Source of the DNA: Euglena gracilis | Lineage: Eukaryota | Assembly (NCBI GenBank): GCA_039621445.1 | Contig: CP154954.1 | Coordinates: 36,255,703-36,319,702, forward strand | Direction of reading: 5' to 3' | Length of the DNA stretch: 64,000 nucleotides | Part shown: positions 13,373 through 45,546 of the stretch, one piece after another | How the letters are laid out: the number at the start of each line of letters is the position of its first letter | How positions within the stretch are numbered: the stretch's first letter is position 1 | The notes under the pieces: model-generated | Database searches by the model: none | Told to the model about the DNA's origin: nothing | Seen by the model: only the letters and a program-made list of their open reading frames with translations | Translations under genes and position numbers: made by a program

Positions 13373-13783
13373 TGTGTACCAGGCACGATCCCAGCTCTGT
13401 GGGAAACCTGCAGAGTCTGGATCCGTCACAATCTGACGGGTGTGATGAACACAGCCTGACGATCGTGGCAGATCCTATGGGATTTATCGACACGTATCAC
13501 ATGTGCCTGCGTGATCTCTTTTCCTCACAGGTGGTATTCTATTCTTCACATTCTGATTGTTTTGAAGTAAGAGGATTAACCTCTGAAAAGACTGAACTCG
13601 ACTGTGAAGGAAAATCCTTCTACAGCGCCTTGCTTTGTGCTCTGCCTTAGCATAGGGGAATTGGGAAAAGGGCTTTTGTTACTCCAAGGATTTTTACTCA
13701 CCTAAGTAGGTGCGCACCAGGAGAAAGCGAAACAGGCTTTTCCGGGACGAAAGGGGTCAAAGGGAAGTCCTTGGACGTACACT
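13373..13783 (+). repeat. 5' LTR (411 bp)
   Basis: Colinear with 29742-30152 (offset 16369, no indels). 3 substitutions (13440, 13487, 13502). Terminal inverted repeat GTGTAC...GTACAC. Confidence 0.96.
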
Positions 13784-13809
13784 TGGTAGCAGATTTAGGC
13801 AACGATCCT
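13784..13809 (+). promoter_or_regulatory. Primer binding site, complementary to the 3' end of initiator tRNA-Met
   Basis: TGGTAGCAGA directly follows the LTR and is the reverse complement of ...UCUGCUACCA of eukaryotic tRNAi-Met. CGATCC at 13803 is in register with the GGAUCG T-arm. Confidence 0.85.
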
Positions 13810-14037
13810 ATACAGACGTTCCACACAGAGAAACTCTGTGGTTGACTGGTGGTGAGGATCGTACTGAGCCGTGAAACACGGTGAAAGTACTGTTCCTGGC
13901 CCCTAGCCAACCTTTAAGCAAGGATACAGGTCTCAGAAGGCTCTGTTCGGTAATCGCCGATACAACCTTTCTGGTCCCTGTTTCTCTGCTTATTTGTGTG
14001 AATTTTTGGGTTTTTGCCTTTTTACCCATCTCAAAAG

Positions 14038-15582
14038 ATGCAGAGCACAAGCCCCAACCCCAAATTTGATTATGACTTGTTGATGAGTTCATTGAGCAAT
14101 TGTGATGAAGATTGCGGGGATTGGAACGGTTTGAATGAAACAAGTTCCAATTCCCGACTCCCCAAGCAAGAAGAAGGCAATTTGACTCATTTGTCATTGT
14201 CAAAAGGCGAAACGCCTTCATTATTGCATGGGGGTAATGAACCCTCTTCATCATCATTGTCATTGATTGTGCGGGATGTAGGTGGCAAAATGCCTTCCTC
14301 CATCCCGATTCACCCATCATTGATGCGGCGAGGGGATGAACCCCTTGCACCCTCACACTTGGTTACTCATGTTACCCATGAACAAAGTGAGGGGTATTTG
14401 CCCTTTGCTCTGTTCACACCCAAACGATCCCCGGTGGAAGCACCGGTGGGCCTTCTGGAGTGCAACTCGGTGGAAACACCGTGTTTTTTCCAACCCCCCC
14501 CTCAATTACCACCTCCCACACCATTTCGCGCATTGCCGGGATTACCCGCGGAAGCGGCGGTTTTCCCTGCATTGCCATGGAACCCAGATATGCGTCTGGT
14601 GGTACCGGAAATCTCTGGTGCCGTTTCTATTGTGGAGGATTATGAGGAAGATTTGAGGGATAACCTCACCCCCGGTGATGTTTACCGAATTCTCGGTCAA
14701 CTCCCAGCGGATCACCCGCTTAGCAAGCAAATTTTGCATGTCCACCAATGCGTTGCGGAATGCGCAACCATGCTCAACAAAGTTTTGCAGTTCGATGAGG
14801 ACAATCAAAGGGTTGTCAACACCAAACTAGAATGTTGCTGGAATTATTTGCAGGAAATCGGCAAATATTGCCAACACAATTTTGAAAATGCGGGGAAAGA
14901 CCTTCAGCATTTTCGAGAAAGTGTTGACAGTATTTTGCGCATCCAACTTCCACAAAATTTCCAACAAATCAGCGAAATGCTGCATGAAGCGGAAACGCGG
15001 AATGATTCCAAGTTTCTGCATGTGCAGGATGGTATGAGCCATCTTTTTGCCCAATTGGAATCCTGTTCAACCATGTTACTGCAATTGCAGCAGCAGGTAC
15101 AAGCGCAAAATGCCACCCCCAAAATGCCGGAAATCGGTAACTTTGTCGCGGTTGAGCATTTTGCCGCACTTACCAGTTCTTTCCAAGAAGCCCAACAACG
15201 GATTTTGCATCTTGGCTCGGAAATCCAGCACTTGAAGCAATTTCAGGTGAAAGTGCAAGAAAATTTTGTTCCTCGTACGCAAATCCAGCTTTTGGAGGAA
15301 CGAATTTCACACTTGGAGCAAAAATCCTGCCATTGTGCCGCAAATCAGGATGGATTAACCACCTTGAACGCGAAAATCGCGGATTGCCCACAACGGTTGG
15401 ATTTTACGCAACAACAAATGCAAACGGACATTGGCGGTATTAATGCCACCGTTGTCGGTTTGCAGGAGCATGTTTCTGCACTTTCCAAGCGAATCCCCGA
15501 CATTAGTGGTATTCAAGCCGCTATTGGGGAATTACAAACCCGTTGCACATTGTTGTCCACCACAGTGACGGAAATCCGCTGA
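14038..15582 (+). CDS. ORF1a: Pro/Ser-rich N-terminus plus long predicted coiled-coil protein upstream of gag
   Basis: About 514 codons from ATG 14038, Q/E/L-rich heptad-like sequence. Ends at a TGA after which the same frame stays open. Confidence 0.7.
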   Translation: MQSTSPNPKFDYDLLMSSLSNCDEDCGDWNGLNETSSNSRLPKQEEGNLTHLSLSKGETPSLLHGGNEPSSSSLSLIVRDVGGKMPSSIPIHPSLMRRGDEPLAPSHLVTHVTHEQSEGYLPFALFTPKRSPVEAPVGLLECNSVETPCFFQPPPQLPPPTPFRALPGLPAEAAVFPALPWNPDMRLVVPEISGAVSIVEDYEEDLRDNLTPGDVYRILGQLPADHPLSKQILHVHQCVAECATMLNKVLQFDEDNQRVVNTKLECCWNYLQEIGKYCQHNFENAGKDLQHFRESVDSILRIQLPQNFQQISEMLHEAETRNDSKFLHVQDGMSHLFAQLESCSTMLLQLQQQVQAQNATPKMPEIGNFVAVEHFAALTSSFQEAQQRILHLGSEIQHLKQFQVKVQENFVPRTQIQLLEERISHLEQKSCHCAANQDGLTTLNAKIADCPQRLDFTQQQMQTDIGGINATVVGLQEHVSALSKRIPDISGIQAAIGELQTRCTLLSTTVTEIR

Positions 15583-16428
15583 CTACCCCCCATTTCGCGT
15601 GCTCGGATATCTGAGTCACCGGAATTTCGCTCATTTTATGACAAAGTGCTTGGTGACAACAAGGAAACCTTGCAAGCATTTTGTACAAGTTTGCTCCAAA
15701 TTAAGGAAATCGTGAATCGGAATGCCCGATCCATGCAAGATGAGGTTTCTCGGTTGGATGGACGAATTTCTGCGTTGTTGGAAAAGCCAACCGCGGAAAC
15801 TTCGCGCACCACCGTGGAAACCCCCACCAAGTCACTCCACCAATTGCAAACCGTCTCAAATGCGGTGAAAGCGCTTGCGGGTCAACTCCGGAATGTGGAG
15901 GAGTCCCAAGGAAATCTTGCCCAAGAATTACACTTGGTTTCTGAAAAGTTGCCACACTTGGAAGATTTTTCCCGTTACCGCAAACGCATTAGGCATTTGG
16001 AGAATGAGGTTGACCGTATTTGCGGCCAACTCCAGTTGGTGGAACATTTGGAAGAAACGGTGCATGACTTGTCCGCGAGTCTGGATAAAATGTCCCCTCC
16101 GATACCGGTTGTGCCACCACCTACCGCGGTAAGCGCTGCGGTTGGTATTCCAAATGTCCCGGAATCGCGTTCTCAAATTACCATTTCCGGAGTAGGAATC
16201 CCTACATCCACCGCGAATTTGGTACAACCACCAGCGAAAACGCGAATTGTACCACCTTTGCATTTGCCAACACCACAAACTCATTTTTCACAACACATTT
16301 CCGATGAGGAAAATGACCCCCCACTCGAAAATTCGAGTCTCCACCAAGAAATTCAACATTCCAACCTTGTACGAGGTATGAGCCAACACCCCACACCTGG
16401 TATTGGTCATGTGTCGCATTCGCGATGA
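15583..16428 (+). CDS. ORF1b: in-frame continuation of ORF1a (coiled coil, then Pro-rich linker)
   Basis: Same frame as ORF1a with no stop from 15583 to 16425. Overlaps the gag frame, which is open from 16382. Confidence 0.65.
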   Translation, partial: LPPISRARISESPEFRSFYDKVLGDNKETLQAFCTSLLQIKEIVNRNARSMQDEVSRLDGRISALLEKPTAETSRTTVETPTKSLHQLQTVSNAVKALAGQLRNVEESQGNLAQELHLVSEKLPHLEDFSRYRKRIRHLENEVDRICGQLQLVEHLEETVHDLSASLDKMSPPIPVVPPPTAVSAAVGIPNVPESRSQITISGVGIPTSTANLVQPPAKTRIVPPLHLPTPQTHFSQHISDEENDPPLENSSLHQEIQHSNLVRGMSQHPTPGIGHVSHSR

Positions 16429-18115
16429 TACCAATCACCAACGGGGTCTGGATTACCGAATTACCGATCGGGGTGCTCGGCGGGAAACCCGCCCCACCGG
16501 GAGAATTTCACCAAATTTTTCGCAATTCCCGCAGGAAAATCCTGCCAACCTTACACTTGGTGCGGGAAATCCTGCACGGGTTACACATGGAGCGGAAAAT
16601 CCGCGAAACGCGTTTGGTGTTAAGAATTACCCTGACCCAAACCCCTGGAATACCACCGAGGGTCAGCGGGTTACTCAGAGAGACTTCAAGGGCACCATCG
16701 CAATCGCGAACAAGGTGAAGCCCCAATGGGACGGGGATCCAACCACATGGAGACAATTTTTTCGGGACTGGGAGTACTATTGGGCACTAAAGGGACCCAC
16801 CCAAGACCCGAATCCCGAGGTAGTCAAGATGGAATTCATCGATTGCCTACCGAGGGAGGAGCGAGAACGCGCACGCAATTTGGTGATACGTAATGGCGTA
16901 TCATTCGATGACCTGGTTGAGCAATACGCTTCAACCAATTCAAGTTTGGTCACCAGGATTACCCTGGAGAAGAAGTGGCGACAAAGCGCGCCATCGGATC
17001 GCAAATGGAAATCCATTGACCTTTGGTATGCCAAATGGTTAGCACTTGCTTCCGAAGTTGATGAACTTAGCGAGAAGCAAATGCGCGAACAATTCGATGC
17101 GGTTTTGTTGCATTTCACACCATCCCTCGTGAAGGATATCCATCGCGAGGAGTTGGCAGGGCATGAGACGACTCTTGCCCAACGTTGGAATTATGTGTCA
17201 AAGCAACTCAAGCTCACACAAGTTTTGGGACAAATACAGTCCGCTTTCCAAACGCATCCCACCGCGGGAATCCCTGCGGGTGCGGTTAATGCGTTGCAAA
17301 AATCACCCATGTCACCAAGATCACCCACTACGGGATCGAAAACGCGGAATCAGCGTTCTTCGGACCAGGGCACGGATAAACTGTGCTTTTTATGCAACAA
17401 ATCTGGTCACATGTCTCGGGAATGCCCGAATCCCGATGCGCGAAAGCGTATTGGAAGCCCAAGGGGCTCGACCTCCTCACGGGGATCGGGTTCCTCGGCG
17501 TTTTCACGTCAATCGGGAGTTTCACGGTCTTCGGAGAACCGCTTTAGCGGTAGTAGGCCCAAGTCACCATCGCGTGCTGGTCGGGAAACCCGTCCTTCTC
17601 GCGGTCGGTCACCTGGACCCCCTGCCCGAAAACGGGATTTCAATCGCGATTCTTCACGATCTCGTTCGCGAAGTGGATCATCCTCTTCACGCGAGTCAAC
17701 GGGGAAGTCCCGATACACCGGTCATGGTCGACGGGAAACCCGTTCACCACGACGGTTTGACGGTCGAACGGAATACCGTTCCCCCCGTTATGCGGAATCC
17801 CGCCACAAATCCCGTTGTTCACTTTGCGGTTCCAAAGATCACCACGCATCCAAATGTCCCAGATCTCGTTCCCCCCGGCCCGGCTACGGAAATCGCGGTA
17901 AGCGCCGCGATGACCGTGGTTACTCCTCCAACCGGCAAAAGGTCGGTTTCAAGATATCTTGTTTGGAGGAGGACACCCCGGCTTCGGGCAGGGAGGGGGA
18001 TGAGACCTCGGACGGGGAATTTAATGAGGCCCGAATGGCGGTGCGCTCATTAAACTCTATCTATTCCACCAAAAAGTCCGTTGCCGGCTATGCGGCCGGT
18101 TCGGACTTGGAGTAG
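16403..18115 (+). CDS. gag: Gag: capsid-like region, two CCHC zinc knuckles, Arg/Ser-rich region
   Basis: PQWDGDPTTWRQFF capsid-like motif; CFLCNKSGHMSREC (17384) and CSLCGSKDHHASKC (17816) fit C-x2-C-x4-H-x4-C. Confidence 0.88.
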   Translation: MVMCRIRDDTNHQRGLDYRITDRGARRETRPTGRISPNFSQFPQENPANLTLGAGNPARVTHGAENPRNAFGVKNYPDPNPWNTTEGQRVTQRDFKGTIAIANKVKPQWDGDPTTWRQFFRDWEYYWALKGPTQDPNPEVVKMEFIDCLPREERERARNLVIRNGVSFDDLVEQYASTNSSLVTRITLEKKWRQSAPSDRKWKSIDLWYAKWLALASEVDELSEKQMREQFDAVLLHFTPSLVKDIHREELAGHETTLAQRWNYVSKQLKLTQVLGQIQSAFQTHPTAGIPAGAVNALQKSPMSPRSPTTGSKTRNQRSSDQGTDKLCFLCNKSGHMSRECPNPDARKRIGSPRGSTSSRGSGSSAFSRQSGVSRSSENRFSGSRPKSPSRAGRETRPSRGRSPGPPARKRDFNRDSSRSRSRSGSSSSRESTGKSRYTGHGRRETRSPRRFDGRTEYRSPRYAESRHKSRCSLCGSKDHHASKCPRSRSPRPGYGNRGKRRDDRGYSSNRQKVGFKISCLEEDTPASGREGDETSDGEFNEARMAVRSLNSIYSTKKSVAGYAAGSDLE

Positions 18116-18151
18116 GGGAGCCCGAGGTCCGAGGGCACGGACCTCTGGGCT
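18113..18151 (+). promoter_or_regulatory. Putative stop-codon readthrough signal (UAG-G plus 13-bp hairpin)
   Basis: gag TAG is in frame with the protease ORF. AGCCCGAGGTCCG-AGGGCA-CGGACCTC(T)GGGCT at 18119-18151. Confidence 0.7.
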
Positions 18152-19198
18152 GATGAACAGATGGAGGTAAGACCTGATCAACCTTACCCCCCCTGCCCAT
18201 CCGCCTTCACGGTCAGTACCCGGAATTATTTCGGGTCCCCTACCCCCCACTCCACATTTCCGCTCGGAATGCTGAGCAAAGTAGGAAAGGGTTCATGGGA
18301 GAGCTGGCATGCAAACGTATTTCCGCCAGACCCTTCACTTTGCGTACCACCAATGGAATTACTCGTCCAAGCGGAAATCCGCATCCAAAATTTCTCCACT
18401 AAAGTTAAAATTCTCATTGACACTGGTTGTCGCATTGCACTGCTCTTTCGGTTGGGGTTGATACCGACCCCGCTCTTGGTAAGCGCCAAGAAACCGATCA
18501 AAATTACAACCGCGGATAACACCCCCATGTGTGGTGGTGATTTGGGATGTGTGCTCGAGATACTCTTGCCCATCATTCCGAAGCATCACTCACAACCCCC
18601 ACAATTACAACATTTCACCAATATTTGGGGTTACGAGTCCGGAATTCACGGGTCTGACGTAATTTTGGGATACCCATTTTTACGCCAGTACCGATTGGTT
18701 GTGGATTGCCACTCCCACGGTTTGCGCACAGCACCCACCACTTCATTGACACCCAAACCACCATCACCGTTGTCATCCACTATGATGACCACCGCTTTGC
18801 CCACACCGTTACCCACAATGGCAACACCGTTACCCACCACACCAACAACCGTTTTCCACACCCGGGGTACGGAGAAAGCCTCCCCCCTGCCCAATGACAC
18901 ACCAACATGCGTTCCACATGAGGCAGGGCAAGCGAGTAGCGGTACCCCCGCCGTTTCACTGGGTTACAAGACGAAAGCCCAAAGGCCTGAAGTAATTACG
19001 GTGTCGAGTAGTCGCCCAGCTACACCACCACTCCGTTTCCACCAGTTGTGCCGCATCCAGGCACAACTGCACAAGACGTCCCTGATAATGCCATCGACAC
19101 CCACTTTCACGCACACCCGTCACACCATCACACTTCCTTCCAATGTGTGCACTGCAGGAGAATTTCCACCCAATCGGATTTCGATTGTGGATGTTTAG
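18116..19198 (+). CDS. Retropepsin aspartic protease plus Thr/Pro-rich linker
   Basis: ILIDTGC catalytic motif and ILGYPFL C-terminal motif. The true frame probably shifts near 19040. Confidence 0.9.
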   Translation, partial: GSPRSEGTDLWADEQMEVRPDQPYPPCPSAFTVSTRNYFGSPTPHSTFPLGMLSKVGKGSWESWHANVFPPDPSLCVPPMELLVQAEIRIQNFSTKVKILIDTGCRIALLFRLGLIPTPLLVSAKKPIKITTADNTPMCGGDLGCVLEILLPIIPKHHSQPPQLQHFTNIWGYESGIHGSDVILGYPFLRQYRLVVDCHSHGLRTAPTTSLTPKPPSPLSSTMMTTALPTPLPTMATPLPTTPTTVFHTRGTEKASPLPNDTPTCVPHEAGQASSGTPAVSLGYKTKAQRPEVITVSSSRPATPPLRFHQLCRIQAQLHKTSLIMPSTPTFTHTRHTITLPSNVCTAGEFPPNRISIVDV

Positions 19199-20247
19199 TT
19201 CAAAATCCGACACTAATCGCAATTCCGAAAACGGAATCCACCCCCCATGATACACTTGGTTGTAGCCCGCAATGCGCGGAGATACACCGAGTACTCCAAC
19301 AACGCGGATTAGCCTCGTTGTTCGGAAACGCGAAAAGCGCGATTCCTAATTACAATCGCGATCACACTTGGTACGGATTTGATGCGGAATGGGGAAACCC
19401 CCAACCTGTCCAAACTCCCTTGGGATTAACCCTTGTGGTAGTGGAAGACAGCCCGCATGTTTGTGGATCCATTCATTGTGTTTCTACCCTTCAACCCGAA
19501 AATCGGGTGCATGAATACGCGAAACGCGTATGGAATGCTTTCAATTTTGGTCAATATCGCATTTTGGAACGATGGTTTTCCAAAAGGTCGACACTGGCTG
19601 ATTCTTTTGATTTGGCATTGGAAATCGATGCCTTCTCATCCAATGCACATGCCCGTTTGCCACGTCATTGTTCACAACACTCCAACGCATTTGATAAATT
19701 TTGGGGTGATACGGTGTTATGGATGCACCCCCCTTCAAAACTTATCGAATGTGTAGTTGAGAAAATTCTGCGGGATGAAGCCCGTGGAGTTATTCTCATA
19801 CCCATCATTCCGGAAGCGGAATGGTTCCACCAACTATCGTATGTCTGTTTTCATTGGTGGAGTTTACCCACTAATGTACCGATTTTTGAGGATTTTTGTG
19901 GTAAAATATTACCACCCTTGCAAGAAATCATTTTTCGCGTATGTTTCTTCGATGCATTCGGAATGTCCGAATTTGCGGTGCCGAGGAAGCTCGGTAGCCC
20001 CAGGGATACCCTGGCGGTTTCCGCGGTCATCGAGAGTGCAGGTCAGCATCCTAAATCAGCCGAATTCTGTTCGCGGATCACCCGCGAATTTCACGGTGTG
20101 CTGGAAAATCGGGTATATGTGTGCGACGTCGACCCCGCGATACGCGGTCCGTTCGGTGTTTGTAAGATCGAGCTGAAGGAAGGAGCCAAAGCAATGCACC
20201 GGAAAATTTTTTCGTTGTTCGGGAGAACGCGAACAAGCTCTCAATGA
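19048..20247 (+). CDS. Pol segment with Cys/His cluster, N6-adenine DNA methyltransferase-like (Dam/DIRS-MT type) domain at about 19550-19960, and pre-RT region
   Basis: LEIDAFSS..N.RLPR.CS...NAF...W....LWMHPPSKLI..VVEKI......VILIP.....WF matches the motif I to motif IV (xPPx) pattern of DIRS/phage Dam-like MTases. The following CKIELKEGAK is a typical pre-RT sequence. Confidence 0.75.
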   Translation: MPHPGTTAQDVPDNAIDTHFHAHPSHHHTSFQCVHCRRISTQSDFDCGCLVQNPTLIAIPKTESTPHDTLGCSPQCAEIHRVLQQRGLASLFGNAKSAIPNYNRDHTWYGFDAEWGNPQPVQTPLGLTLVVVEDSPHVCGSIHCVSTLQPENRVHEYAKRVWNAFNFGQYRILERWFSKRSTLADSFDLALEIDAFSSNAHARLPRHCSQHSNAFDKFWGDTVLWMHPPSKLIECVVEKILRDEARGVILIPIIPEAEWFHQLSYVCFHWWSLPTNVPIFEDFCGKILPPLQEIIFRVCFFDAFGMSEFAVPRKLGSPRDTLAVSAVIESAGQHPKSAEFCSRITREFHGVLENRVYVCDVDPAIRGPFGVCKIELKEGAKAMHRKIFSLFGRTRTSSQ

Positions 20248-20269
20248 AATGTTTGAGAAGCTTATTTAG

Positions 20270-23215: not shown

Positions 23216-23294
23216 GGATACATGGGAAATCCATGTTGTTTTCGTTTGTTGTTTCTATCATTGATTCTTATCATTCTTTCTTTCCGCAGAAATT

Positions 23295-25073
23295 TTGTTT
23301 GCCAACCAATACCCAAACCAGGGAGATACCCTTTCACTTGACAACAAACCACCCACACAATCTACCGTACCGACCCCGGGCGGTATTATGCTGCCCGGTG
23401 GAAGGGATTCAGGCGGAGGACCGCCTTACCACCCCACCACTCACCCTCAACCTGACCAGTATGCATACCGATACGGTACGCAGCCACCTGCACGGACTGC
23501 GGCTCAGGGAAACCCTGAAGCCAGCAGCAGTAGCAGGATGACCCAGATGCCCGCGGAAGCGCGGCCATCTCAGCCATCAGGCTCTCGTCGCCTCCCACCG
23601 TATGCGGGTGTGATGATCCACCGCACGGCGGAGACGATGAACCGGGTTATGCGTATGAGCGCAAACCCGGCACCAGACCAACTCACACAGGCATTGTGGG
23701 ATGACCACTGCCGTAAAGTTTTGACCATCGCGAATACCCCTCCAGCCCTGTGGTGTATGTGCGCCCAGGCGACGATGACCGGTCTGGTGTATTACACCGA
23801 CCCGGACGCGTCGGGATTCGCGGCAGACATTACCATGCGTGACCTGGGCGTGGAAGTCCCGCCACAGGTCGCAAGGCAGGTACCACCCGTTGGCACTTAC
23901 ACTGCACATTTTCGTGCTCACTCCCCCGGATTACCCGAGGAAGAGACAGTGGAAGCACCTGTCCGGAGTGAACACCCACGTGTGAAAGAAAGTATTTTTC
24001 GATCCCCTGAGCGCATGCCCCGGCGGGATTATCCTGCGCAGGAGCATGTGTCTCAGTACACCGTCTCTGGGGATTATCCCCAGGAGGCGCCAAGGCCACA
24101 GGATCAGTACATATATCCACCTCAACCCCACCCCACTATACCTGACCCTATCTCACGACGTCCTGCGGCGGGAAATCCTCCCCCGACGTCTGACTCTGCC
24201 CGAAGCGCTCGTCCGCGGGAAGCCGCGGCAGCGCCTCGTGCGACACCAGTTCCCCCGGCACGGGATGAACCCGTTAACCCGTGGACTGGTCGGCCGTTCG
24301 AGACTGAGGAGGACCGTCAACAGTATGAATATGCTGTGACGATCCAACGACAAATCGCACGTCGCCCCCCTGTTTCCGCTGGCCAGGGATACCCTGCCCG
24401 GGCGGAAATGACACGGGAAGAGCGCCAGCAGTATGATGCTGCTGTGTCGGCTCTCACAGGAGTCCCAGCTCCATCACGGTTAAGTCAACCAGCGCGACAG
24501 CGGGACGTGGCTGTGGCGGAAGCGCCACCAGCACGACCCACAAGCTCTGCCGCCGGCAAACGTGACCGCGGCCCGGAAAATCTGACGCCGCAGCCACAAC
24601 GCCGCTCGCCGAGGTCGGAAAACCCGCCCGCGGCGATGCACGTCGACGCTGAGGAGGAAGCTCCGCCAGCGCCCGACGTGACGGCAGAACGGGCACGTCG
24701 GGAAACCCGACCATCCCCAGTCGCACCGGTTTACTCGAATCGTGGTGATGCTGAGCAGGAATTTGCTCGAACACCAAGCACGGAATCCGTGACTTACCCT
24801 GTGTATACAGAAGAAGACCCAGAATACTGGGAATATTGGGACCCATATCGAGCGACGATAGAATGGCTGTCCAACACGAAGGGCAAGGGTAAAGGAAAAG
24901 GCAAGGGTAAGGGTAAAGGTAAAGGCCAGGAGAAAGGTGGGAAAGCCCCATCTGGGAAAGGCGAAAAAACCCGCTGGACCAGCTCCAGGCAAAGGCGGAA
25001 AATCTGCCGGACCCTCCACAGGAAAAGGCGGAAAAGCCGCCGAGCCTTCGAAAACGAAGGATTACGACGTTAA
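23295..25073 (+). CDS. Accessory ORF part A (Pro/Ala/Arg-rich, GK repeat), unknown function
   Basis: 592-codon sense ORF after pol; first ATG 23388; (GK)n at about 24879-24925. Confidence 0.65.
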   Translation: MFANQYPNQGDTLSLDNKPPTQSTVPTPGGIMLPGGRDSGGGPPYHPTTHPQPDQYAYRYGTQPPARTAAQGNPEASSSSRMTQMPAEARPSQPSGSRRLPPYAGVMIHRTAETMNRVMRMSANPAPDQLTQALWDDHCRKVLTIANTPPALWCMCAQATMTGLVYYTDPDASGFAADITMRDLGVEVPPQVARQVPPVGTYTAHFRAHSPGLPEEETVEAPVRSEHPRVKESIFRSPERMPRRDYPAQEHVSQYTVSGDYPQEAPRPQDQYIYPPQPHPTIPDPISRRPAAGNPPPTSDSARSARPREAAAAPRATPVPPARDEPVNPWTGRPFETEEDRQQYEYAVTIQRQIARRPPVSAGQGYPARAEMTREERQQYDAAVSALTGVPAPSRLSQPARQRDVAVAEAPPARPTSSAAGKRDRGPENLTPQPQRRSPRSENPPAAMHVDAEEEAPPAPDVTAERARRETRPSPVAPVYSNRGDAEQEFARTPSTESVTYPVYTEEDPEYWEYWDPYRATIEWLSNTKGKGKGKGKGKGKGKGQEKGGKAPSGKGEKTRWTSSRQRRKICRTLHRKRRKSRRAFENEGLRR

Positions 25074-26784
25074 CCAGGTGTTCGACTACCTGGATGAGAT
25101 CTGGCCGAAAATTGAAGAAAATCTTCAGCAGTACACACGTGCAGGTAACGTCATCCACCGACCACCGGAAGCGGTGCTCGAAGTGGTACAGGATCGTATG
25201 TACGATCACTGCAAGCGATTTTTCTACAGTTCTGAACTTCATGCATTTGAGGGATACCCTCATTCGAATGAAGTCGTCCTGGACCGGATGCCCGGTTTCT
25301 GGGAGCTGTGGTTCTGGTTGGGATACCCCTGCCAGAACTTCGGCATCTTTACTGACCGAAACGGTCAGTCGTACGTGAACTGTTTGGGAACATGTCCTGA
25401 CGATGAAACGTTCGTCGCACAGTTGAAGGAAATCTTCAACCACATGTATTCCGTCAGCGCACTGGGAATCCAGTGGAAGTATTACCCCCTGCCGGAGAAA
25501 CTCCAGGTGCAGGCTGCGGTAATGTTCACGAACAACCTCCAAGTATTCTTGGATAGCATGTATGGCATGCTGTTCAAGGTACTGGACGTGGACCTCGCCT
25601 ATCCTCAGCGATACAAGCTGGAATGCCAGTTTTGCAAAGAGCAACACATTGTTGATTTCTGGGGTTTCGGTGAGCGTGGAAAACCGCCTCCGACTGCCGA
25701 GAATGCCGGCAGCCCACTGACCAGGAGATTTCTCCTGCATCAGTGCCGAAAGCCCCAGATCGGAACGCAAGATCGAAAGGTGCTGAAACAGCACCGGCAG
25801 AAAATATTTCTGCTTCAACAATACTGGCACAGGGCGTGGATTACCTACGTCCTGGAGGTGTACATTTATTTCCTGGAGTACATGACCACTGATGTGAATA
25901 TTCACAGGAAGTGGTTACCTCGGGGATACACCGAGGAAGAAGCCAGACCGAATGACCAAGACCGACGCAGGATTAACCTGCGGCCGGACTGGTACGAGGC
26001 CGAAATCGGTCTTCCGAAGCACATGGAAAACCAGTTCGGGAATATCCTGATCTGGGAAGATTTCCAGTCCTTCTACGCAGCAGACGTGGAAAAACAGCCA
26101 CGTTATGCCTTGCCGCTGTCAGCCTTCCTGGAAGACACAGGAGAACGTGGCATGAGCTGGGATCGGCGAATGCAGTGGGAAGACCTCTGCCGTAACAATG
26201 AGGACGAGCCAGAGCCCTTACCCGGAAGCGGGGTAAGACCGTCATGGCCACCCCCATATCCCAACTCTGACAGGAGCGAAAGTATTAGCTTTTTCCGCCT
26301 GTCAGACGCACAGGGGTGCTACAGAACCGGGGAAGACCCGCGTTCTGCAGCACAGCTACACACAGAGGACTCACCTCCGGAAGCGGAGGAGACGGAAGAA
26401 GTGGTCCCAATGGCCGAGGATGAACCTCAGCCCGCGGAACCTCCGGCACGGGAAACCCGTAGCCCATCGGTTGTGATGCTGGACACTGTGGCGGAAACCG
26501 CCCAGCGCCCGGGATCACCGACAGGTGAAATGACGCCTGTCCCACTGTCACCATCCTCACCGGGTACGCCAGGAGGACCGACCCCTCCGCGGAAAAACCC
26601 GCCGGAGACGGTAACCCATACGCCTGAGGTTCTTGTCCCGAATTATTATTATTACGCCTCAAGCTTCCTGTCCCCGGGGAAATCCCGACGACAGAGGAGC
26701 CAGTGGAGGAGCCCACTTCAGGGGAAGGACCTGAACGGCGCCCCTCACTGGGCGGACGTGTACTCGGCGGTTTGCGATCACTGA
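24937..26784 (+). CDS. Accessory ORF part B (globular aromatic-rich domain with CQFC..H..HQC, then acidic/Pro tail)
   Basis: 615-codon frame that continues the GKGGK repeats of part A across the A6 run at 24964-24969. Confidence 0.7.
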   Translation: MGKPHLGKAKKPAGPAPGKGGKSAGPSTGKGGKAAEPSKTKDYDVNQVFDYLDEIWPKIEENLQQYTRAGNVIHRPPEAVLEVVQDRMYDHCKRFFYSSELHAFEGYPHSNEVVLDRMPGFWELWFWLGYPCQNFGIFTDRNGQSYVNCLGTCPDDETFVAQLKEIFNHMYSVSALGIQWKYYPLPEKLQVQAAVMFTNNLQVFLDSMYGMLFKVLDVDLAYPQRYKLECQFCKEQHIVDFWGFGERGKPPPTAENAGSPLTRRFLLHQCRKPQIGTQDRKVLKQHRQKIFLLQQYWHRAWITYVLEVYIYFLEYMTTDVNIHRKWLPRGYTEEEARPNDQDRRRINLRPDWYEAEIGLPKHMENQFGNILIWEDFQSFYAADVEKQPRYALPLSAFLEDTGERGMSWDRRMQWEDLCRNNEDEPEPLPGSGVRPSWPPPYPNSDRSESISFFRLSDAQGCYRTGEDPRSAAQLHTEDSPPEAEETEEVVPMAEDEPQPAEPPARETRSPSVVMLDTVAETAQRPGSPTGEMTPVPLSPSSPGTPGGPTPPRKNPPETVTHTPEVLVPNYYYYASSFLSPGKSRRQRSQWRSPLQGKDLNGAPHWADVYSAVCDH

Positions 26785-26878
26785 TCGCAGTTGTCACCCC
26801 ACGTGGCACTGCGGCCAGTTCTTCCACTGCTGTGACGGATACTGCCAGCCAACGGACGAAACAACTGAAGTTGCAGCC

Positions 26879-28852
26879 ATGGAGGAGGATGAACCTCCCC
26901 CAATGGCCACGCCACCGCCGGTGTCGGAAACGACACGGACGGAGGGCGAACAGACGGCAATGTCAGTGGAGATAGCACTACCCGCGCCAGTGCAGGATGA
27001 ACCTGCATTAGCACCGGTAGCGGCATCAGAGGCACGGGATGAGCCCGTACCCCCACACACAGCGGCCACTGCACCGAAGCGTGCGGGCACACGGACACCG
27101 GCACCTGAAAAACAGGCTACACGGACATCCATGCCCCCACCACAGACTCAGCCAACGCGAAGTGCAGCGGCGACGTCCACACCCACACCGTCCCCCACGG
27201 CTGCTCCTGGGAAACCCACGAGCGCAGCGAAGGAACGCGTAGGGCGACCCTCAGCTCGGGAAACCCCTGCTGAAGGTCAACGACGCTCGGTGTCGGGGAA
27301 AAGACCCCCGGCCCAGCCGTCACCACGCACCTGGTCAAGCAAGCGTGACGCCGAACGGCGACCCTCGGATGCTCCGGAAAGCGGAAGTCCGAAGGCCCCG
27401 GCCAAATCAAAGCCCGGTGCCGCGCCTTGCAAACCCTCACCTAAGACAGGTGATCAGCCCCCACCGAAAGGCGGTGGTGGTGCTGGAGGCCAGGGTGCAT
27501 CTTCTTCTAGAGGATTAGCCTCGGGAGGAGGATTCACACAGGTCACATCATCCGGCTATGGGAAAACCTCACAGCCGAAACCACCTACGAAGGGGCAGGG
27601 AAAATCCCGCGCCTCTACGACTACGACACCTTCGGAAGGCGAAGTTGTCATCGACTGGAATGCGATGACTCAGGATGATCCTGAGACTCATGACCTGAAA
27701 AACAGGTACATGATGATCGAACACAAGCTGCGAACAGACCAATGCCTCAATCGGTGGATTGAACCACTGTTCTGTCAAGGACGGAAATGGTCCTTTGACC
27801 AGAATGTCACCTGGAATTATTACAATTCCAGATCACAACGTGTTTTGGCCCAATACTTCGGCGAGGAATTCCTCGTCGACAGAACATCGGAAAACCGATT
27901 TGTGTGGCTCTGCACTGTTTGCCACAGGATGTACAACAGTGCTCCTGACTTGGGATTACCCCTCGTTCATGTGTGCAACCCTGTGGATCGGAAATCGTTC
28001 CACAAGGATATGTACATACCCAACTGTGCCGCCTTGGTATGTGCCAAGTGCGTGGACAGTTGGACCCACAAGCACAATTTTGGCTACACGGAGCGAGATG
28101 GTACGAATGTACCAGTACTCTGCGTCAACTGCCTGCGAGGTACCTTCTGGCACACTGCGGAAGGCGCAGTTCGCACAATCGTGCCGAGTGCCGAGAAGCC
28201 ACTGGAGGAATACTCCACCTTGAACAGAAAGTTCAAGGACGCCTTCAAGTACTCAAACCTCAAGCTTGACGACTACCGCAACACGGGAATGGCCCGTGGG
28301 TGGCAGATCGACTGTGGGGCGATACGCCTCGCTGCTGAGGAAGCAGGGGTAAGATTACCTTACCTCTGGGAGACAGCGGACAGGGAAAAGATACTTTTCC
28401 GCCTGTTCACAACCCAGGACCGAAACGGTCGCTGGTGCCTACCACAATGGCCACCCGAAAAACACGGGATGACCTGGAAGGACTGGCTAGGGGCCGTATT
28501 GCGACCCCATACAGTCCGGGCGGAATGCGCCTATCACGTTCCCATCGACTTCCACCCGGGCAATGCCCCGCAGGTGTCAGCCAATCACCCTCGGAGAAAC
28601 TACTTCATCTGGCCAGCGACTTTGCACAGGAAATTCTGGGAGAAGCTGCAGTGGTTTCTCGCGGAAAGAGCGAGTGCCACCAAGCAGACAGTACCCGAAG
28701 GATGGGTTCGGGACTGGATCGCACCTGATTTCGACTACGACTCGCCGGAAACCTGGCTTGTCGACAGGCCACAGCCACCACAATTCCAGATGGTCCTTGT
28801 GGAAGATCCCTTGGACTCCCGCCATGACTATTGGCGGCTGGAGCGGATGTAA
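26879..28852 (+). CDS. Accessory ORF part C (low-complexity N-half, RING-like Cys-rich domain, Trp-rich C-terminus)
   Basis: 657 codons; CTVC...CAALVCAKC...CVNC at 27911-28132. Confidence 0.7.
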   Translation: MEEDEPPPMATPPPVSETTRTEGEQTAMSVEIALPAPVQDEPALAPVAASEARDEPVPPHTAATAPKRAGTRTPAPEKQATRTSMPPPQTQPTRSAAATSTPTPSPTAAPGKPTSAAKERVGRPSARETPAEGQRRSVSGKRPPAQPSPRTWSSKRDAERRPSDAPESGSPKAPAKSKPGAAPCKPSPKTGDQPPPKGGGGAGGQGASSSRGLASGGGFTQVTSSGYGKTSQPKPPTKGQGKSRASTTTTPSEGEVVIDWNAMTQDDPETHDLKNRYMMIEHKLRTDQCLNRWIEPLFCQGRKWSFDQNVTWNYYNSRSQRVLAQYFGEEFLVDRTSENRFVWLCTVCHRMYNSAPDLGLPLVHVCNPVDRKSFHKDMYIPNCAALVCAKCVDSWTHKHNFGYTERDGTNVPVLCVNCLRGTFWHTAEGAVRTIVPSAEKPLEEYSTLNRKFKDAFKYSNLKLDDYRNTGMARGWQIDCGAIRLAAEEAGVRLPYLWETADREKILFRLFTTQDRNGRWCLPQWPPEKHGMTWKDWLGAVLRPHTVRAECAYHVPIDFHPGNAPQVSANHPRRNYFIWPATLHRKFWEKLQWFLAERASATKQTVPEGWVRDWIAPDFDYDSPETWLVDRPQPPQFQMVLVEDPLDSRHDYWRLERM

Positions 28853-29661
28853 TGCCGAAAGGGCATTACCAAGCCCATGTAAGGTAAGCGCCTTCATGGA
28901 GCTCATACACTATATATATACACTGGAGGCGGAAATCGCGAAACAGCCCTGGGATGAACCTGGGTCTGTGTCCTTCAGCGCTCTGGATGGAAGCATCCAA
29001 GAGCCCCCCCCCCCATGCCAACCCATAATACCAGTGACCATGCGGACGGAAACCGTCTGCGGGAGGTAATCGCCTCTTATTGCGTCGTGAAGGAGCTACT
29101 GCTGTGAAGACCTTGGCAGCCGGGAAACCTGGCAAGCCGCTAAGTGACGCACAGCACACAGCGCGCACGCCGTAATAATAGGCCAACTTGTCACTTTTCG
29201 GCCCTAAGGCCCTTAAGGCTGCCAGACAGCAAAAATTCTGTTCCGGCCTAAGCCAACCCCCCTCTCCTCCCTACTTTCCGCCCACCCCCGCAAAGCTGTC
29301 GCCGGCAGTCGGTTTTGTAAGTAGGCTTTTGTTTCCTAGTGCGGATATGACCGCCTAGGAGCACTATCCGGGTATGACCAGGATAGGAGCCTGCCCCCCC
29401 CTTCCACACCTCTCCCCTCGGGTTTTCAGCGAATCGCTTGACCAACCCCGCGTGCCTTTGGCGCACCCAAAGTGGGTGGATGGGATACTTTGACAGGAAA
29501 CCTGCCAAGCCCCAATTTCCCACAGTGGGCTTTTTCGCACCCCTAAGCCGAAACGGCTAATAGGTAACCGCGATAAGCGGTAACCTTTTGCGCGTTTTCG
29601 GGTTTTTGGGTTGCGCCACTGTGGAGAAAAGAGATCCGTGTTCTGGAAAACAAAACCCGAT

Positions 29662-29732
29662 CAGGGCTGTGTCTGAAATCCTGACGGGACCTGGGATGAC
29701 CTGGTCCAAGAAGGAAATCGGGCATAGCCCTG
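29662..29732 (+). other. Long RNA hairpin immediately 5' of the PPT
   Basis: CAGGGCUGUGUCUGA pairs with UCGGGCAUAGCCCUG (15 bp, 3 G-U), followed by UCCU/AGGA and GGACC/GGUCC. Confidence 0.75.
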
Positions 29733-29741
29733 GGAGGGGGA
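29732..29741 (+). promoter_or_regulatory. Polypurine tract
   Basis: GGGAGGGGGA directly abuts the 3' LTR. Confidence 0.9.
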
Positions 29742-30152
29742 TGTGTACCAGGCACGATCCCAGCTCTGTGGGAAACCTGCAGAGTCTGGATCCGTCACAA
29801 TCTGACGGCTGTGATGAACACAGCCTGACGATCGTGGCAGATCCTATGGGATTTAGCGACACGTATCACACGTGCCTGCGTGATCTCTTTTCCTCACAGG
29901 TGGTATTCTATTCTTCACATTCTGATTGTTTTGAAGTAAGAGGATTAACCTCTGAAAAGACTGAACTCGACTGTGAAGGAAAATCCTTCTACAGCGCCTT
30001 GCTTTGTGCTCTGCCTTAGCATAGGGGAATTGGGAAAAGGGCTTTTGTTACTCCAAGGATTTTTACTCACCTAAGTAGGTGCGCACCAGGAGAAAGCGAA
30101 ACAGGCTTTTCCGGGACGAAAGGGGTCAAAGGGAAGTCCTTGGACGTACACT
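29742..30152 (+). repeat. 3' LTR (411 bp)
   Basis: 408/411 identical to 13373-13783. Confidence 0.96.
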
Positions 30153-45489: not shown

Positions 45490-45502
45490 GGGGGGGGGGG
45501 GT

Positions 45503-45538
<36 letters not shown>

Positions 45539-45546
45539 CGGGGGGG
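45490..45546 (+). repeat. Poly-G tract (about 57 nt) inserted in a monomer
   Basis: TTCTTGC-(G)n-AAACC-AACCAAGATT; absent from the paralogous monomer at about 47670. Confidence 0.9.

Follow-up and report, generated by a model that had tools for sequence, protein, structure and literature searches.

The window, i.e., the whole 64-kb stretch of DNA that was analysed, contains a Ty3/gypsy LTR retrotransposon of chromovirus type that carries a Dam-like domain and lies inside a 213-bp satellite array. Short perfect hairpins span the entire length of this element (13373-30152), far in excess of chance, with loops drawn from a narrow vocabulary and confined largely to one strand. They are tentatively explained here, with somewhat less than even confidence, as a selected structural code of the sense strand, in which dispersed stem-loops are bound by a protein of the element or shield its RNA.

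Architecture and Insertion Site of the Element

The satellite occupies positions 1-13373 and 30152-64000 (TRF, 64-kb window), and a repeat search of the window found direct repeats starting at 13373 and 29742. Uninterrupted satellite continues straight across the AAATG target site. The six hairpins of the 5′ LTR are all found again in its 3′ counterpart, and two of the three differences between the LTRs hit stems that are perfect in the 3′ copy only (13438 vs. 29807; 13491 region vs. 29860). The features of the element are collected in Table 1.

Pfam returned only weak coiled-coil-type matches, below cut-off, for the two ORFs upstream of gag, and no match for the three overlapping ORFs downstream of pol. 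The catalytic triplet of the Dam-like domain is HPP (19717-19734 region), while part of the family has NPP (alignment with relatives), and PF05869 was found in 21 of 120 homologues among the matches listed. The layout matches that of DAM-LTR retrotransposons, which are chromovirus-like LTR elements whose Dam-like domain lies between protease and RT; a term search of the main text of the preprint describing them found no nucleic-acid hairpins, the word being used there for a protein feature only (10.64898/2026.05.21.726589).

Table 1. Features of the retrotransposon and classes of perfect hairpin, in window coordinates.
Feature	Position	Strand	Evidence or remark
Whole LTR retrotransposon, ~16.8 kb	13373..30152	+	Satellite limits, direct repeats, LTR alignment, Pfam domains
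Target-site duplication AAATG, left copy	13368..13372	.	Right copy 30153-30157; read at both junctions
5′ LTR	13373..13783	+	LTR alignment; 3 differences vs. 3′ LTR in ~411 nt
Primer-binding-site-like stretch, begins TGG, adjoins LTR	13784..13800	+	Sequence; putative, from usual LTR-retroelement layout
Two in-frame ORFs (526 + 281 aa), one TGA between, coiled-coil character, upstream of gag	14002..16428	+	
gag-like ORF, ends in TAG	16382..18115	+	Pfam zf-CCHC, E=1.2e-6
Two CCHC zinc knuckles in gag-like ORF	17384-17425, 17816-17857	+	Motif location
Protease ORF, in gag frame	18116..19198	+	LIDTG 18413-18427; ILGYPFL 18662-18682
Dam-like adenine-methyltransferase domain	19012..20247	+	Pfam PF05869, E=2.5e-4, 21.2 bits, below 28.1 cut-off; alignment with relatives
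RT - RNase H - integrase - chromodomain ORF (pol), 981 aa	20270..23215	+	Pfam; homologues at most 86% identical
Three overlapping ORFs (602, 640, 705 aa), proline-rich, Cys-rich C-terminal part	23265..28852	+	
Polypurine tract immediately 5′ of 3′ LTR	29732..29741	+	Sequence; putative, from layout
3′ LTR	29742..30152	+	Direct repeats, LTR alignment
G-AAA-C hairpin, 7 bp	13824..13840	+	5′ UTR
G-AAA-C hairpin, 5 bp	13869..13881	+	5′ UTR
G-AAA-C hairpin, 6 bp	14204..14218	+	
G-AAA-C hairpin, 5 bp	15660..15672	+	
G-AAA-C hairpin, 6 bp	16479..16493	+	
G-AAA-C hairpin, 5 bp	17731..17743	+	
G-AAA-C hairpin, 7 bp	19515..19531	+	
G-AAA-C hairpin, 5 bp	21605..21617	+	Absent from sequence-only list
G-AAA-C hairpin, 7 bp	22963..22979	+	11 pairs if one mismatch allowed
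G-AAA-C hairpin, 6 bp	23504..23518	+	
G-AAA-C hairpin, 6 bp	24697..24711	+	
G-AAA-C hairpin, 8 bp	25351..25369	+	Present in predicted RNA and DNA folds
G-AAA-C hairpin, 7 bp	25779..25795	+	
G-AAA-C hairpin, 5 bp	26448..26460	+	
G-AAA-C hairpin, 5 bp	26490..26502	+	
G-AAA-C hairpin, 5 bp	28418..28430	+	
G-AAA-C hairpin, 5 bp	29045..29057	+	3′ UTR
G-AAA-C hairpin, 5 bp	29546..29558	+	3′ UTR
G-GAAG-C hairpins (11), 5-7 bp	14431, 19806, 19981, 21582, 21690, 23551, 24213, 24513, 25163, 26374, 28984 (14431..28999)	+	
A-AAA-T hairpins (9)	13606, 15369, 16531, 16592, 19494, 20977, 22679, 25113, 29975	+	Span of this and the next two classes together, 13606..29989
G-ATA-C hairpins (6)	20000, 20135, 23466, 24384, 25248, 28384	+	
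G-ATGAA-C hairpins (5)	14331, 24260, 26884, 26991, 29807	+	

Hairpins Exceed Chance Expectation

An earlier sequence-only reading listed 17 hairpins with a G-AAA-C loop. All 17 are present where they were placed, with one adjustment (the hairpin put at 19516 starts at 19515 and has a 7-bp stem), and an eighteenth was added at 21605. Five further hairpins named as loop relatives are likewise present, but the one at 16531 has an AAA triloop closed by A-T and not an AAAA loop. The claim that the set lies far above chance understated the signal: 18 G-AAA-C hairpins compare with 0.13 ± 0.36 (maximum 2) when the 16,779-nt element is shuffled 300 times with dinucleotides preserved, and the nine reading frames hold 14 against 0.55 ± 0.70 (maximum 3) in 200 shuffles preserving protein and codon usage. 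The excess is found for stem-GAAAC-stem only, not for stem-GTTTC-stem, as that reading had proposed to check: G-TTT-C hairpins number 0 in the element (0.11 in 300 dinucleotide-preserving shuffles), and at least four further perfect flanking pairs surround 18 of 46 GAAAC pentamers but 0 of 23 GTTTC pentamers. Hairpins occur in UTRs and in coding regions at varied codon phase (loop start phases 0/1/2 = 3/7/4). The signal is thus at the nucleic-acid level, as had been suggested, being independent of codon phase and strand-specific by both shuffles and loop counts.

The G-AAA-C hairpins are only part of a wider excess. In all, 233 perfect hairpins have stems of at least 5 bp and loops of 3-8 nt (89.8 ± 9.0, maximum 114, in dinucleotide shuffles). 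Those with loops of 3, 4 and 5 nt number 54, 59 and 57 (expected 18.2, 17.9 and 13.6), together 170 against about 50 expected, or about 10 per kb; for loops of 6-8 nt the excess is merely z ~2. Stems closed by 5′G..C3′ number 123 against 24.6 expected, and are preferred about 4:1 over those closed by 5′C..G3′ (31). Enrichment is highest in pol (41 vs. 8.8 expected, 4.7x); it is 3.0-4.3x in the three ORFs of 23265..28852 and 2.2x in the 3′ UTR (6 vs. 2.8 expected), while the stretch 18116-19011 of the protease ORF has no perfect hairpins with 3-5-nt loops.

A Narrow Loop Vocabulary on the Sense Strand

The loops are A-W-A, GAAG, ATGAA and a few others, closed mostly by 5′G..C3′. The 11 G-GAAG-C hairpins compare with 0.03 in shuffles; G-C-closed triloops are A-W-A in 24 of 25 cases (53 of 1476 in shuffles), and C is missing from 87 of 100 G-C-closed loops (1283 of 4023). 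Stems with at least four further pairs are found on 11 of 18 GGAAGC hexamers, stems also occur on 5 of 11 GATGAAC, and there are none on four other words (GAAGC 0/37, GACAC 0/18, GAGAC 0/15, GGAAC 0/13). Purine-majority loops outnumber pyrimidine-majority loops by 122 to 36 (6618 to 6369 in shuffles), and AAA loops total 18 G-C-closed plus 9 A-T-closed against no TTT loops. A single vocabulary runs through the UTRs, the LTRs and the coding sequence in every frame and phase, and composition gives no explanation for it.

Predicted Folding

Across 139 windows of 120 nt, the element has a mean folding z of -2.11 (predicted MFE -37.6 vs. -30.5 kcal/mol when shuffled), compared with -0.28 over 107 windows from 14 other gypsy-like loci. 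The local minimum-energy fold includes 87 of 100 G-C-closed perfect hairpins, and the predicted hairpin density is about 1 per 42 nt. Under RNA parameters the sense strand is predicted to be more structured than the antisense strand (Wilcoxon p=4e-4), whereas under DNA parameters the strands are alike (z -1.93 vs. -1.82, p=0.59).

Conservation among Relatives

The hairpins are a family trait older than the present insertion. In 4 of 26 site groups in which most other copies depart from the present one, those copies carry a 5-6-bp stem that is broken here; the reverse (a stem of at least 5 bp here, broken in other copies) was seen in 1 of 26. Many stems lie on peptides that all five close relatives share unchanged, which indicates that the stems were built from synonymous choices. 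Variable protein columns are preferred: they hold 118 of 210 residues within hairpins and 308 of 771 others (p=3e-5).

The trait is not common to the wider family. A related fragment of 1.7 kb (L001), whose protein is 74% identical over 138 aa with only ~400 homologous nt, has 8 hairpins against 4.1 expected and none that is G-C-closed. No GAAAC-type loops were seen in 32 more distant gypsy-like loci, among which the top G-C-closed excess was 18 vs. 6.2 (L014).

Origin of the Hairpins

The excess, its independence of coding, the loop vocabulary, the strand asymmetry and the element-wide stability of the predicted folds are direct observations. A structure that is selected, and either read by protein or shielding, is favoured by two of these findings, the narrow, non-thermodynamic loop vocabulary and an enrichment that peaks where coding is most constrained. 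Selection rather than mutation would then have made the hairpins over many rounds of retrotransposition, chiefly through synonymous and weakly constrained sites. RNA would be the molecule that folds, most probably the genomic RNA or mRNA of the element, and the transcript would form short local stem-loops in close succession, presenting above their G-C closing pairs a few kinds of apical loop rich in adenine or purines. Their likeliest use would be multi-site recognition by an RNA-binding protein encoded by the element, perhaps Gag/nucleocapsid or the product of the upstream coiled-coil ORFs, allowing selective packaging and condensation of the 16-kb RNA. A compact RNA, hidden from host nucleases or small-RNA pathways, may be a secondary benefit.

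Several observations count against a selected code. Stems are strictly Watson-Crick, with G.U not enriched at their ends (28 vs. 25.4 expected), and the predicted sense fold has fewer G.U pairs than shuffles (8.4% vs. 11.1-11.4%). As internal mismatch, G.T is only modestly commoner than A.C (18 vs. 12; expected 4.5 vs. 5.5). Predicted stability under DNA parameters is much the same on both strands, spacing is irregular (CV 1.38), the related 1.7-kb fragment is without the trait, and of the private amino-acid changes inside hairpins only 1 in 4 is really required for its own stem. Zinc-knuckle nucleocapsids are known to prefer G-containing loops, and the adenine-only loops differ in this respect. 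The sequence-only reading had offered packaging or Gag-binding signals, protection of ssDNA or RNA, and a hairpin-generating mutational process; its interpretation is partly supported, and the evidence does not settle the choice among the three.

The last of these, a mutational by-product, is unlikely but the most probable of the rival explanations. Nascent-strand snap-back, or quasi-palindrome correction by intramolecular template switching, during reverse transcription or replication of master copies would yield short, perfect inverted repeats whose loops are minimal; at synonymous and variable sites these would be almost neutral and so accumulate. It accounts for perfect stems with abrupt ends and no wobble enrichment, for an excess limited to the smallest loops (3-5 nt) and for the preference for variable protein columns. 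One-mismatch stems are enriched in every mismatch class, as the decay of perfect stems predicts. Template switching is a documented source of perfect RNA hairpins (PMC8794818), which likewise form without stepwise compensatory change, but it is not known to pick particular loop sequences or one strand. A generic copying error leaves the closed loop vocabulary, the absence of T-rich loops and the closing-pair preference unexplained. Neutral mutations that change several bases at once and are often damaging would leave the reverse of the observed peak in conserved pol; many stems fall on invariant peptides, where overwriting several bases should in most cases be lethal, and the protease stretch without perfect mini-hairpins is predicted to fold as strongly as the rest (z -2.09).

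A bias of the host or lineage is improbable. The genome, or all transcribed sequences, would share this hairpin style through a mutational or selective regime of the host where the lineage lived, and the element would mirror it, which fits the missing trait in the 1.7-kb relative, from another source, and in the 32 distant loci. The sole host DNA of the window, 47 kb of satellite, is however predicted to be unstructured (z +0.7), and not even two flanking pairs occur at any of its 161 GAAAC sites, although all of these repeat a single site. The asymmetry also tracks the coding strand of the element, and the insertion is recent, as its three LTR differences indicate, so that the hairpins were made in the lineage of the element and not after insertion.

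Slightly less probable still is that an ssDNA replication intermediate (minus-strand cDNA with T-rich loops, or a displaced plus strand) is the relevant molecule, its hairpins compacting or protecting DNA or offering looped adenines to the Dam-like methyltransferase. With double-stranded E. coli DNA the DAM-LTR preprint reports no activity, and it raises a non-duplex substrate (10.64898/2026.05.21.726589); the element encodes such a domain, and A directly follows the paired G in 66 of the 100 hairpins closed by G-C. Under DNA parameters the perfect Watson-Crick stems reach still stronger values (25330-25480: predicted z -5.4 on the minus and -4.0 on the plus strand; element-wide -1.8 and -1.9), but the link between methyltransferase and loops is purely conjectural, HPP replaces the conserved NPP in this subfamily, RNA parameters favour the sense strand and the 1.7-kb relative has no hairpin signature.

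Comparison with Known Systems

Genome-scale ordered RNA structure (GORS) is found in some positive-strand RNA viruses, and the element resembles it in an element-wide predicted folding-energy excess over shuffles that includes the genes. Unlike the present case, GORS is not known to involve a shared loop vocabulary or to be made of perfect mini-hairpins. A literature search, judged by titles, found no report of GORS in a retrotransposon.

Described mitochondrial inverted repeats are also perfect repeats within functional protein-coding sequence, where protein function and secondary structure are both kept; they reach 284 bp with no shared loop motif described, unlike the 5-8-bp stems of this nuclear retrotransposon.

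Precedents for a selected code are the stem-loops of STNV and the looped purines of retroviruses. In the account of STNV, up to ~30 dispersed stem-loops with an AXXA loop motif drive capsid assembly (PMC5699041). As here, many short stem-loops with varied stems and a shared minimal A-containing loop motif lie across coding and non-coding sequence. STNV is, however, a 1.2-kb RNA virus, and the candidate sites of the 16.8-kb retrotransposon have perfect stems, mostly 3-5-nt loops and several loop classes instead of one. Looped purines are described as Gag binding and packaging sites in MMTV (PMC8096270); the present element likewise encodes Gag and presents unpaired purines on stems of its sense RNA. 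Retroviruses, as described, have one or few such sites in the 5′ leader, whereas the element has more than 100 along its full length.

An Unusually Long Chromovirus-like Element

The satellite array is broken by a single 16.8-kb insertion, flanked on both sides by a 5-bp target-site duplication (AAATG). Its LTRs are in direct orientation and differ from each other at three positions, and a primer-binding stretch starting with TGG and a polypurine tract are also present. The long ORFs all lie on the + strand, in the order two coiled-coil ORFs, a gag-like ORF with two CCHC knuckles, protease, Dam-like domain, RT-RNase H-integrase-chromodomain, and three more. The LTR pair with its duplication, the gag(CCHC)-PR-RT-RNase H-IN order and the C-terminal chromodomain are those of a Ty3/gypsy chromovirus. 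Pfam matches were to zf-CCHC, RVT_1, RT_RNaseH, rve and Chromo; the protease was placed by motifs. An Rfam search gave one sub-threshold chance match, and a tRNA scan found none.

Coordinates of the element, its setting and the sites discussed in the text (positions in the window)
Feature	Position	Details
Satellite array	1-13373; 30152-64000	213-bp units, 426-bp higher-order
Satellite junction in public-run contigs	13368-13373 / 30152-30160	about 16.79 kb skipped
5′ LTR	13373-13783	411 nt
3′ LTR	29742-30152	411 nt
Coiled-coil ORFs	14002-16428	526 and 281 aa, one TGA between
Perfect stems with hexaloops TA-W-G-N-G or TAATGG	14584, 15028, 17892, 18084, 18474, 28033	6-nt loops
Further sites of this hexaloop class	16884, 21805	
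End of gag ORF and continuing protease frame	18113-18160	TAG, same frame
Protease stretch	18116-19011	0 perfect hairpins with 3-5-nt loops, 2.9 expected
Stem past the gag stop	18124	8 perfect pairs, 6-nt loop
Frame changes among protease, Dam-like domain and RT	about 19012-19198; about 20200-20270	
Longest perfect stem, loops up to 8 nt	19043	10 bp
His-Pro-Pro of the Dam-like domain	19717-19734	
K to R change	20399	needed for stem
ORFs after the chromodomain	23265-28852	about 5.6 kb, three overlapping frames
G-AAA-C site differing among copies	24167	
Closing-pair variant	24167-24181	T instead of C
Lys-Gly repeats	24879-24930	
Run of 57 G in the satellite	45490-45546	

The Dam-like domain matches PF05869 with E=2.5e-4 (21.2 bits, under the Pfam cut-off of 28.1), and its region aligns to relatives that have PF05869 among their precomputed domains. 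Protein homologues are up to 86% identical to the element, with P0001-P0005 at 70-86%, and among the 120 homologue matches listed at least 21 carry PF05869 and at least three PF00145. Matches in the ESM Atlas were generic gypsy clusters only, spread over many phyla. At the catalytic triplet the element has His-Pro-Pro (HPP), as do its two closest long relatives (P0002 and P0004); six of the seven other aligned relatives (P0003, P0009, P0010, P0012, P0013 and P0017) have Asn-Pro-Pro, and the seventh (P0022) has Asn-Cys-Pro. Since P0002 and P0004 share it, HPP is a trait of the subfamily and not a private defect of one copy.

The element's architecture is the one that a 2026 preprint (10.64898/2026.05.21.726589) names DAM-LTR and describes as chromovirus-like; its reported hosts are green algae, Euglena and a small number of further protists, land plants and animals not being among them. 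The element is alike in having a Dam-like domain within the pol region and unlike in having HPP for NPP, so that the conserved Asn-Pro-Pro of DAM-LTR retrotransposons is absent from it. The element belongs to this just-described group.

The two coiled-coil ORFs, in frame with each other and upstream of gag, gave only weak sub-threshold matches to Pfam and are a possible ORF1-like RNA chaperone. Coding continues after the chromodomain in three ORFs without a Pfam match, which contain Lys-Gly repeats, proline-rich stretches and a Cys-rich C-terminal part.

Perfect Mini-Hairpins Far Exceed Expectation

The sequence-only reading had reported at least 17 perfect G-AAA-C hairpins (closing base, loop, closing base) in the element. 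All are present at their sites, with every coordinate correct, and the total is 18 rather than 17. In 300 dinucleotide-preserving shuffles the count was 0.13 ± 0.36 (maximum 2), and the mirror form, G-TTT-C, does not occur in the element. When synonymous codons were swapped within each of nine frames, which keeps both the proteins and the codon usage, 0.55 G-AAA-C hairpins were expected and 14 observed. The proposed independence of codon phase also held: all three phases are in use, and paired positions have no significant phase preference (51/39/60, p=0.11).

Perfect hairpins with stems of at least 5 bp and loops of 3-8 nt number 233, compared with 89.8 ± 9.0 in dinucleotide shuffles, and longer stems are likewise in excess (94 vs 23.0 at ≥6 bp; 29 vs 5.9 at ≥7 bp). 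The excess lies in loops of 3, 4 and 5 nt, those of 6-8 nt being barely enriched. Stems closed by 5′G..C3′ occur 123 times (24.6 expected) and those closed by 5′C..G3′ 31 times (24.2 expected). Within the nine frames, codon shuffles gave 51.5 ± 7.0 hairpins with 3-5-nt loops where 154 were observed, and 16.3 G-C-closed hairpins where 93 were observed. Hairpins with a single internal mismatch add another 73 (30.5 expected). Perfect stems with 3-5-nt loops reach 8 bp at most. Because the counts in both kinds of shuffle fall far below those observed, the hairpin signal is real, is not due to the encoded proteins, and is much broader than first described. Chance or an assembly artefact was rejected as its source; the element sequence is contained in 20 of the 24 runs listed, from 17 studies, including one leaf-litter metatranscriptome.

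Enrichment is 2.2-5.3-fold over region-wise shuffles throughout the element, with the exception of the protease stretch, and peaks in the conserved pol ORF (41 vs 8.8 expected). No regular spacing of hairpins was found (CV 1.38).

The Loops Form a Closed, Strand-Asymmetric Vocabulary

The G-C-closed hairpins with loops of 3-5 nt number 100. Of their 25 triloops, 24 are A-W-A, compared with 3.6% in shuffles. Of the 34 tetraloops, 31 have G or A as the first base, and 11 are GAAG. The pentaloops make up two series, one AT-N-A-N (ATGAA five times, ATTAA three times, ATTAC, ATCAC and others) and one of purines (GAAAT, AAAGG, GAAGG and AAAAG). Loops without C make up 87 of the 100, against 32% in shuffles. 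The same vocabulary is used in the LTRs, both UTRs and every ORF.

Loop choice was also scored as the share of all occurrences of a word in the element that are flanked by at least four further perfect pairs. This was the case for 18 of 46 GAAAC, 11 of 18 GGAAGC, 5 of 11 GATGAAC, 6 of 28 GATAC and 9 of 41 AAAAT, and for none of 23 GTTTC, 37 GAAGC, 18 GACAC, 15 GAGAC and 13 GGAAC. By the nearest-neighbour tables, we know of no favoured loop, except GGAAGC, that is among the specially stable DNA or RNA loops. GGAAGC is on the old RNA tetraloop bonus list; G-GAA-C, a stable DNA triloop, is never used in the element.

Loops with a purine majority number 122 and those with a pyrimidine majority 36, the ratio in shuffles being about 1:1. 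As a G-C closing pair reads alike on both strands, the strand asymmetry sits in the loops. A small class of hexaloops on perfect stems, TA-W-G-N-G or TAATGG in form, starts with T and ends with G; in RNA a U.G wobble pair could close them, which would leave tetraloops.

Predicted Folding and the Molecule Involved

Under RNA parameters the sense strand, taken in 139 consecutive windows of 120 nt, gave a predicted mean z of −2.11 (minimum free energy −37.6 vs −30.5 kcal/mol in shuffles), and the antisense strand a mean of −1.68 (paired Wilcoxon p=4e-4). The satellite scored +0.7. All 11 regions of the element lie between −1.2 and −2.9, and the protease stretch, with no perfect mini-hairpins, reaches −2.09 all the same. 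RT-matching parts of 14 other gypsy-like loci have a mean z of −0.28 (107 windows, range +0.68 to −1.12). The predicted local minimum-energy folds of the element contain 395 hairpin loops, of which 303 are no longer than 5 nt (four shuffles: 165-195) and 185 are G-C-closed (shuffles: 64-105), and 87 of the 100 G-C-closed perfect hairpins form in them.

Four observations count for sense RNA as the molecule that folds: the strand asymmetry under RNA parameters; the excess of internal G.T mismatches (18 vs 4.5 expected, or 4-fold; A.C, 12 vs 5.5, or 2.2-fold); the hexaloops that U.G could close; and the closing-pair variant, a T in roughly half of the copies by depth and a C in the others, where the T would give a G.U pair in RNA. 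Counting against it, mismatches at stem ends have no wobble preference (28 G.U, 23 A.C), the predicted sense fold has fewer G.U pairs than shuffles, and under DNA energy parameters both strands score alike; energy models tell neither the strand nor the molecule.

Hairpins in Other Copies and in Relatives

Each of the six hairpins in the 5′ LTR is found again in the 3′ LTR, which indicates that the hairpins are older than this insertion. At two of the three positions where the LTRs differ, one of them within a CpG context, the 3′ LTR has a perfect stem and the 5′ LTR a broken one. The family is abundant, with 167,909 contig pieces on the element from run X1 and 204-525 from three other runs. 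From 2,962 differences among copies, 40 were compared, grouped into 26 sites. At four sites, one of them a G-AAA-C, a hairpin of 5-6 bp is intact in most other copies and broken in this one; one site has a 5-bp stem here that is absent from other copies, three have only 4-bp stems here that are absent from others, and 18 show no difference. This pattern fits an ancestral family trait that may be decaying in an inert copy.

Compared with the five close relatives, residues covered by hairpins are less conserved than others (P0001: 0.76-0.82 vs 0.89) and more often fall in variable columns (118/210 vs 308/771, p=3e-5). In columns where the five relatives agree, 88 of the 92 hairpin-covered residues are unchanged here and, as they are unchanged, the stems on them are built from synonymous choices. 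Private amino-acid changes at otherwise invariant columns are found at 4/92 positions in hairpins and 4/463 outside (p=0.03). That the hairpins forced these changes was rejected, just one of the four (K to R) being strictly needed for its stem.

DNA of the relatives was found neither in viral contigs, searched with a protein query and an alignment query, nor in genome contigs. Metagenome contigs yielded 33 gypsy-like loci. Only one of these is close to the element: L001, a rearranged fragment of 1.7 kb that has about 400 nt homologous to it. No G-C-closed hairpins occur in the 1.7 kb of L001, barely 400 nt of which is homologous, and the loop vocabulary is in none of the other 32 loci. A metagenomic gypsy-like unit at L014:4715-9428, present twice in tandem on its contig, has 30 perfect short hairpins against 15.2 ± 4.3 expected (2-fold), mostly A-T-closed. 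It was rejected as the same phenomenon: its loops match its A-rich composition and lack the vocabulary, and its z is ordinary (−0.5).

Origin and Possible Function of the Array

The reading we tentatively favour, with somewhat less than even confidence, is a selected structural code on the sense strand, in which selection would act for many stem-loops that are protein-readable or shielding. It is preferred because the vocabulary is closed and thermodynamically arbitrary, the strands are asymmetric, enrichment is greatest in the gene under the strongest constraint, stems on invariant peptides use synonymous sites, and the folding excess is element-wide. Described precedents are the AXXA packaging signals of satellite tobacco necrosis virus (PMC5699041) and the purine loops bound by retroviral Gag (PMC8096270). 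Like dispersed packaging signals, the element has many dispersed stem-loops with a common loop motif; unlike them, it has perfect mini-hairpins with several loop classes. With genome-scale ordered RNA structure it shares a predicted folding energy well beyond randomised controls along its whole length, and it differs in the same perfect mini-hairpins of several loop classes. The array may work like either system and is assignable to neither. A limited search of the open-access literature found no description of such a hairpin array in a retrotransposon, and the main text of the DAM-LTR preprint makes no mention of nucleic-acid hairpins (10.64898/2026.05.21.726589).

A more specific and distinctly unlikely form is an 'assembly and identity code', in which more than 100 mini-hairpins presenting looped adenines on G-C pairs would be read by the element's own proteins. 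A capsid or ORF1-like protein would condense and package the unusually long 16-kb RNA. A possible second reader would be the captured Dam-like methyltransferase, its HPP pocket altered; its targets would be flipped-out adenines where stem and loop meet, in single-stranded RNA or cDNA and not in duplex DNA. Such a target would account for the lack of activity of these Dam-like enzymes on duplex DNA in E. coli (10.64898/2026.05.21.726589).

The main rival, somewhat unlikely in our judgement, is that templated snap-back or quasi-palindrome correction made the hairpins. It explains their strict Watson-Crick perfection and minimal loops; under such an origin, changes clustered within one arm would have made it match its partner. 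However, hairpins of that kind are expected to be independent of loop sequence and strand, whereas the vocabulary here is closed and asymmetric, and the maximum in pol is also left unexplained. In the protein-level comparison, neither arm was consistently more diverged. The coding palindromes of Nematomorpha mitochondria, tens to hundreds of bp in length, are unlike the stems seen here, which reach at most 8 bp with 3-5-nt loops and 10 bp with any loop up to 8 nt. A host-wide bias is improbable, the unstructured satellite (z +0.7) counting weakly against it. Less probable still, and speculative, is that the hairpins act in single-stranded cDNA, where they might serve the Dam-like enzyme as a substrate. 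The catalytic triplet of this enzyme is HPP in this subfamily and NPP in most of the more distant aligned relatives.

If the array was selected, as we favour, this would be the first retrotransposon known to us in which structure is ordered genome-wide in a virus-like way and the loops share a vocabulary. The recognition and packing of very long retroelement RNAs would then become directly testable, as would the existence of dispersed packaging signals outside RNA viruses and the substrate of retrotransposon-borne Dam-like enzymes. If it is a by-product of copying, it would be a natural record, of unusual clarity, of a snap-back synthesis that has a sequence preference, and would bear on the birth of new RNA hairpins. 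Either way, constraint at the nucleic-acid level can come close to saturating a mobile element's synonymous sites.

Other Features of the Element and Its Setting

The protease continues in frame after the TAG that ends the gag ORF, and a 13-bp stem starts 8 nt past this stop, within an 84-nt stretch with a predicted fold z of −3.4. Its geometry is one that we take to resemble the stop-codon readthrough signal of gammaretroviruses. The reading frame shifts twice among the protease, Dam-like domain and RT, and copies from public runs have one-base length differences inside both frame-change stretches, which suggests that this copy may be defective. Some public-run contigs join the satellite directly across the insertion site, as expected for satellite units without the insertion. 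The array also contains a long homopolymeric G run.
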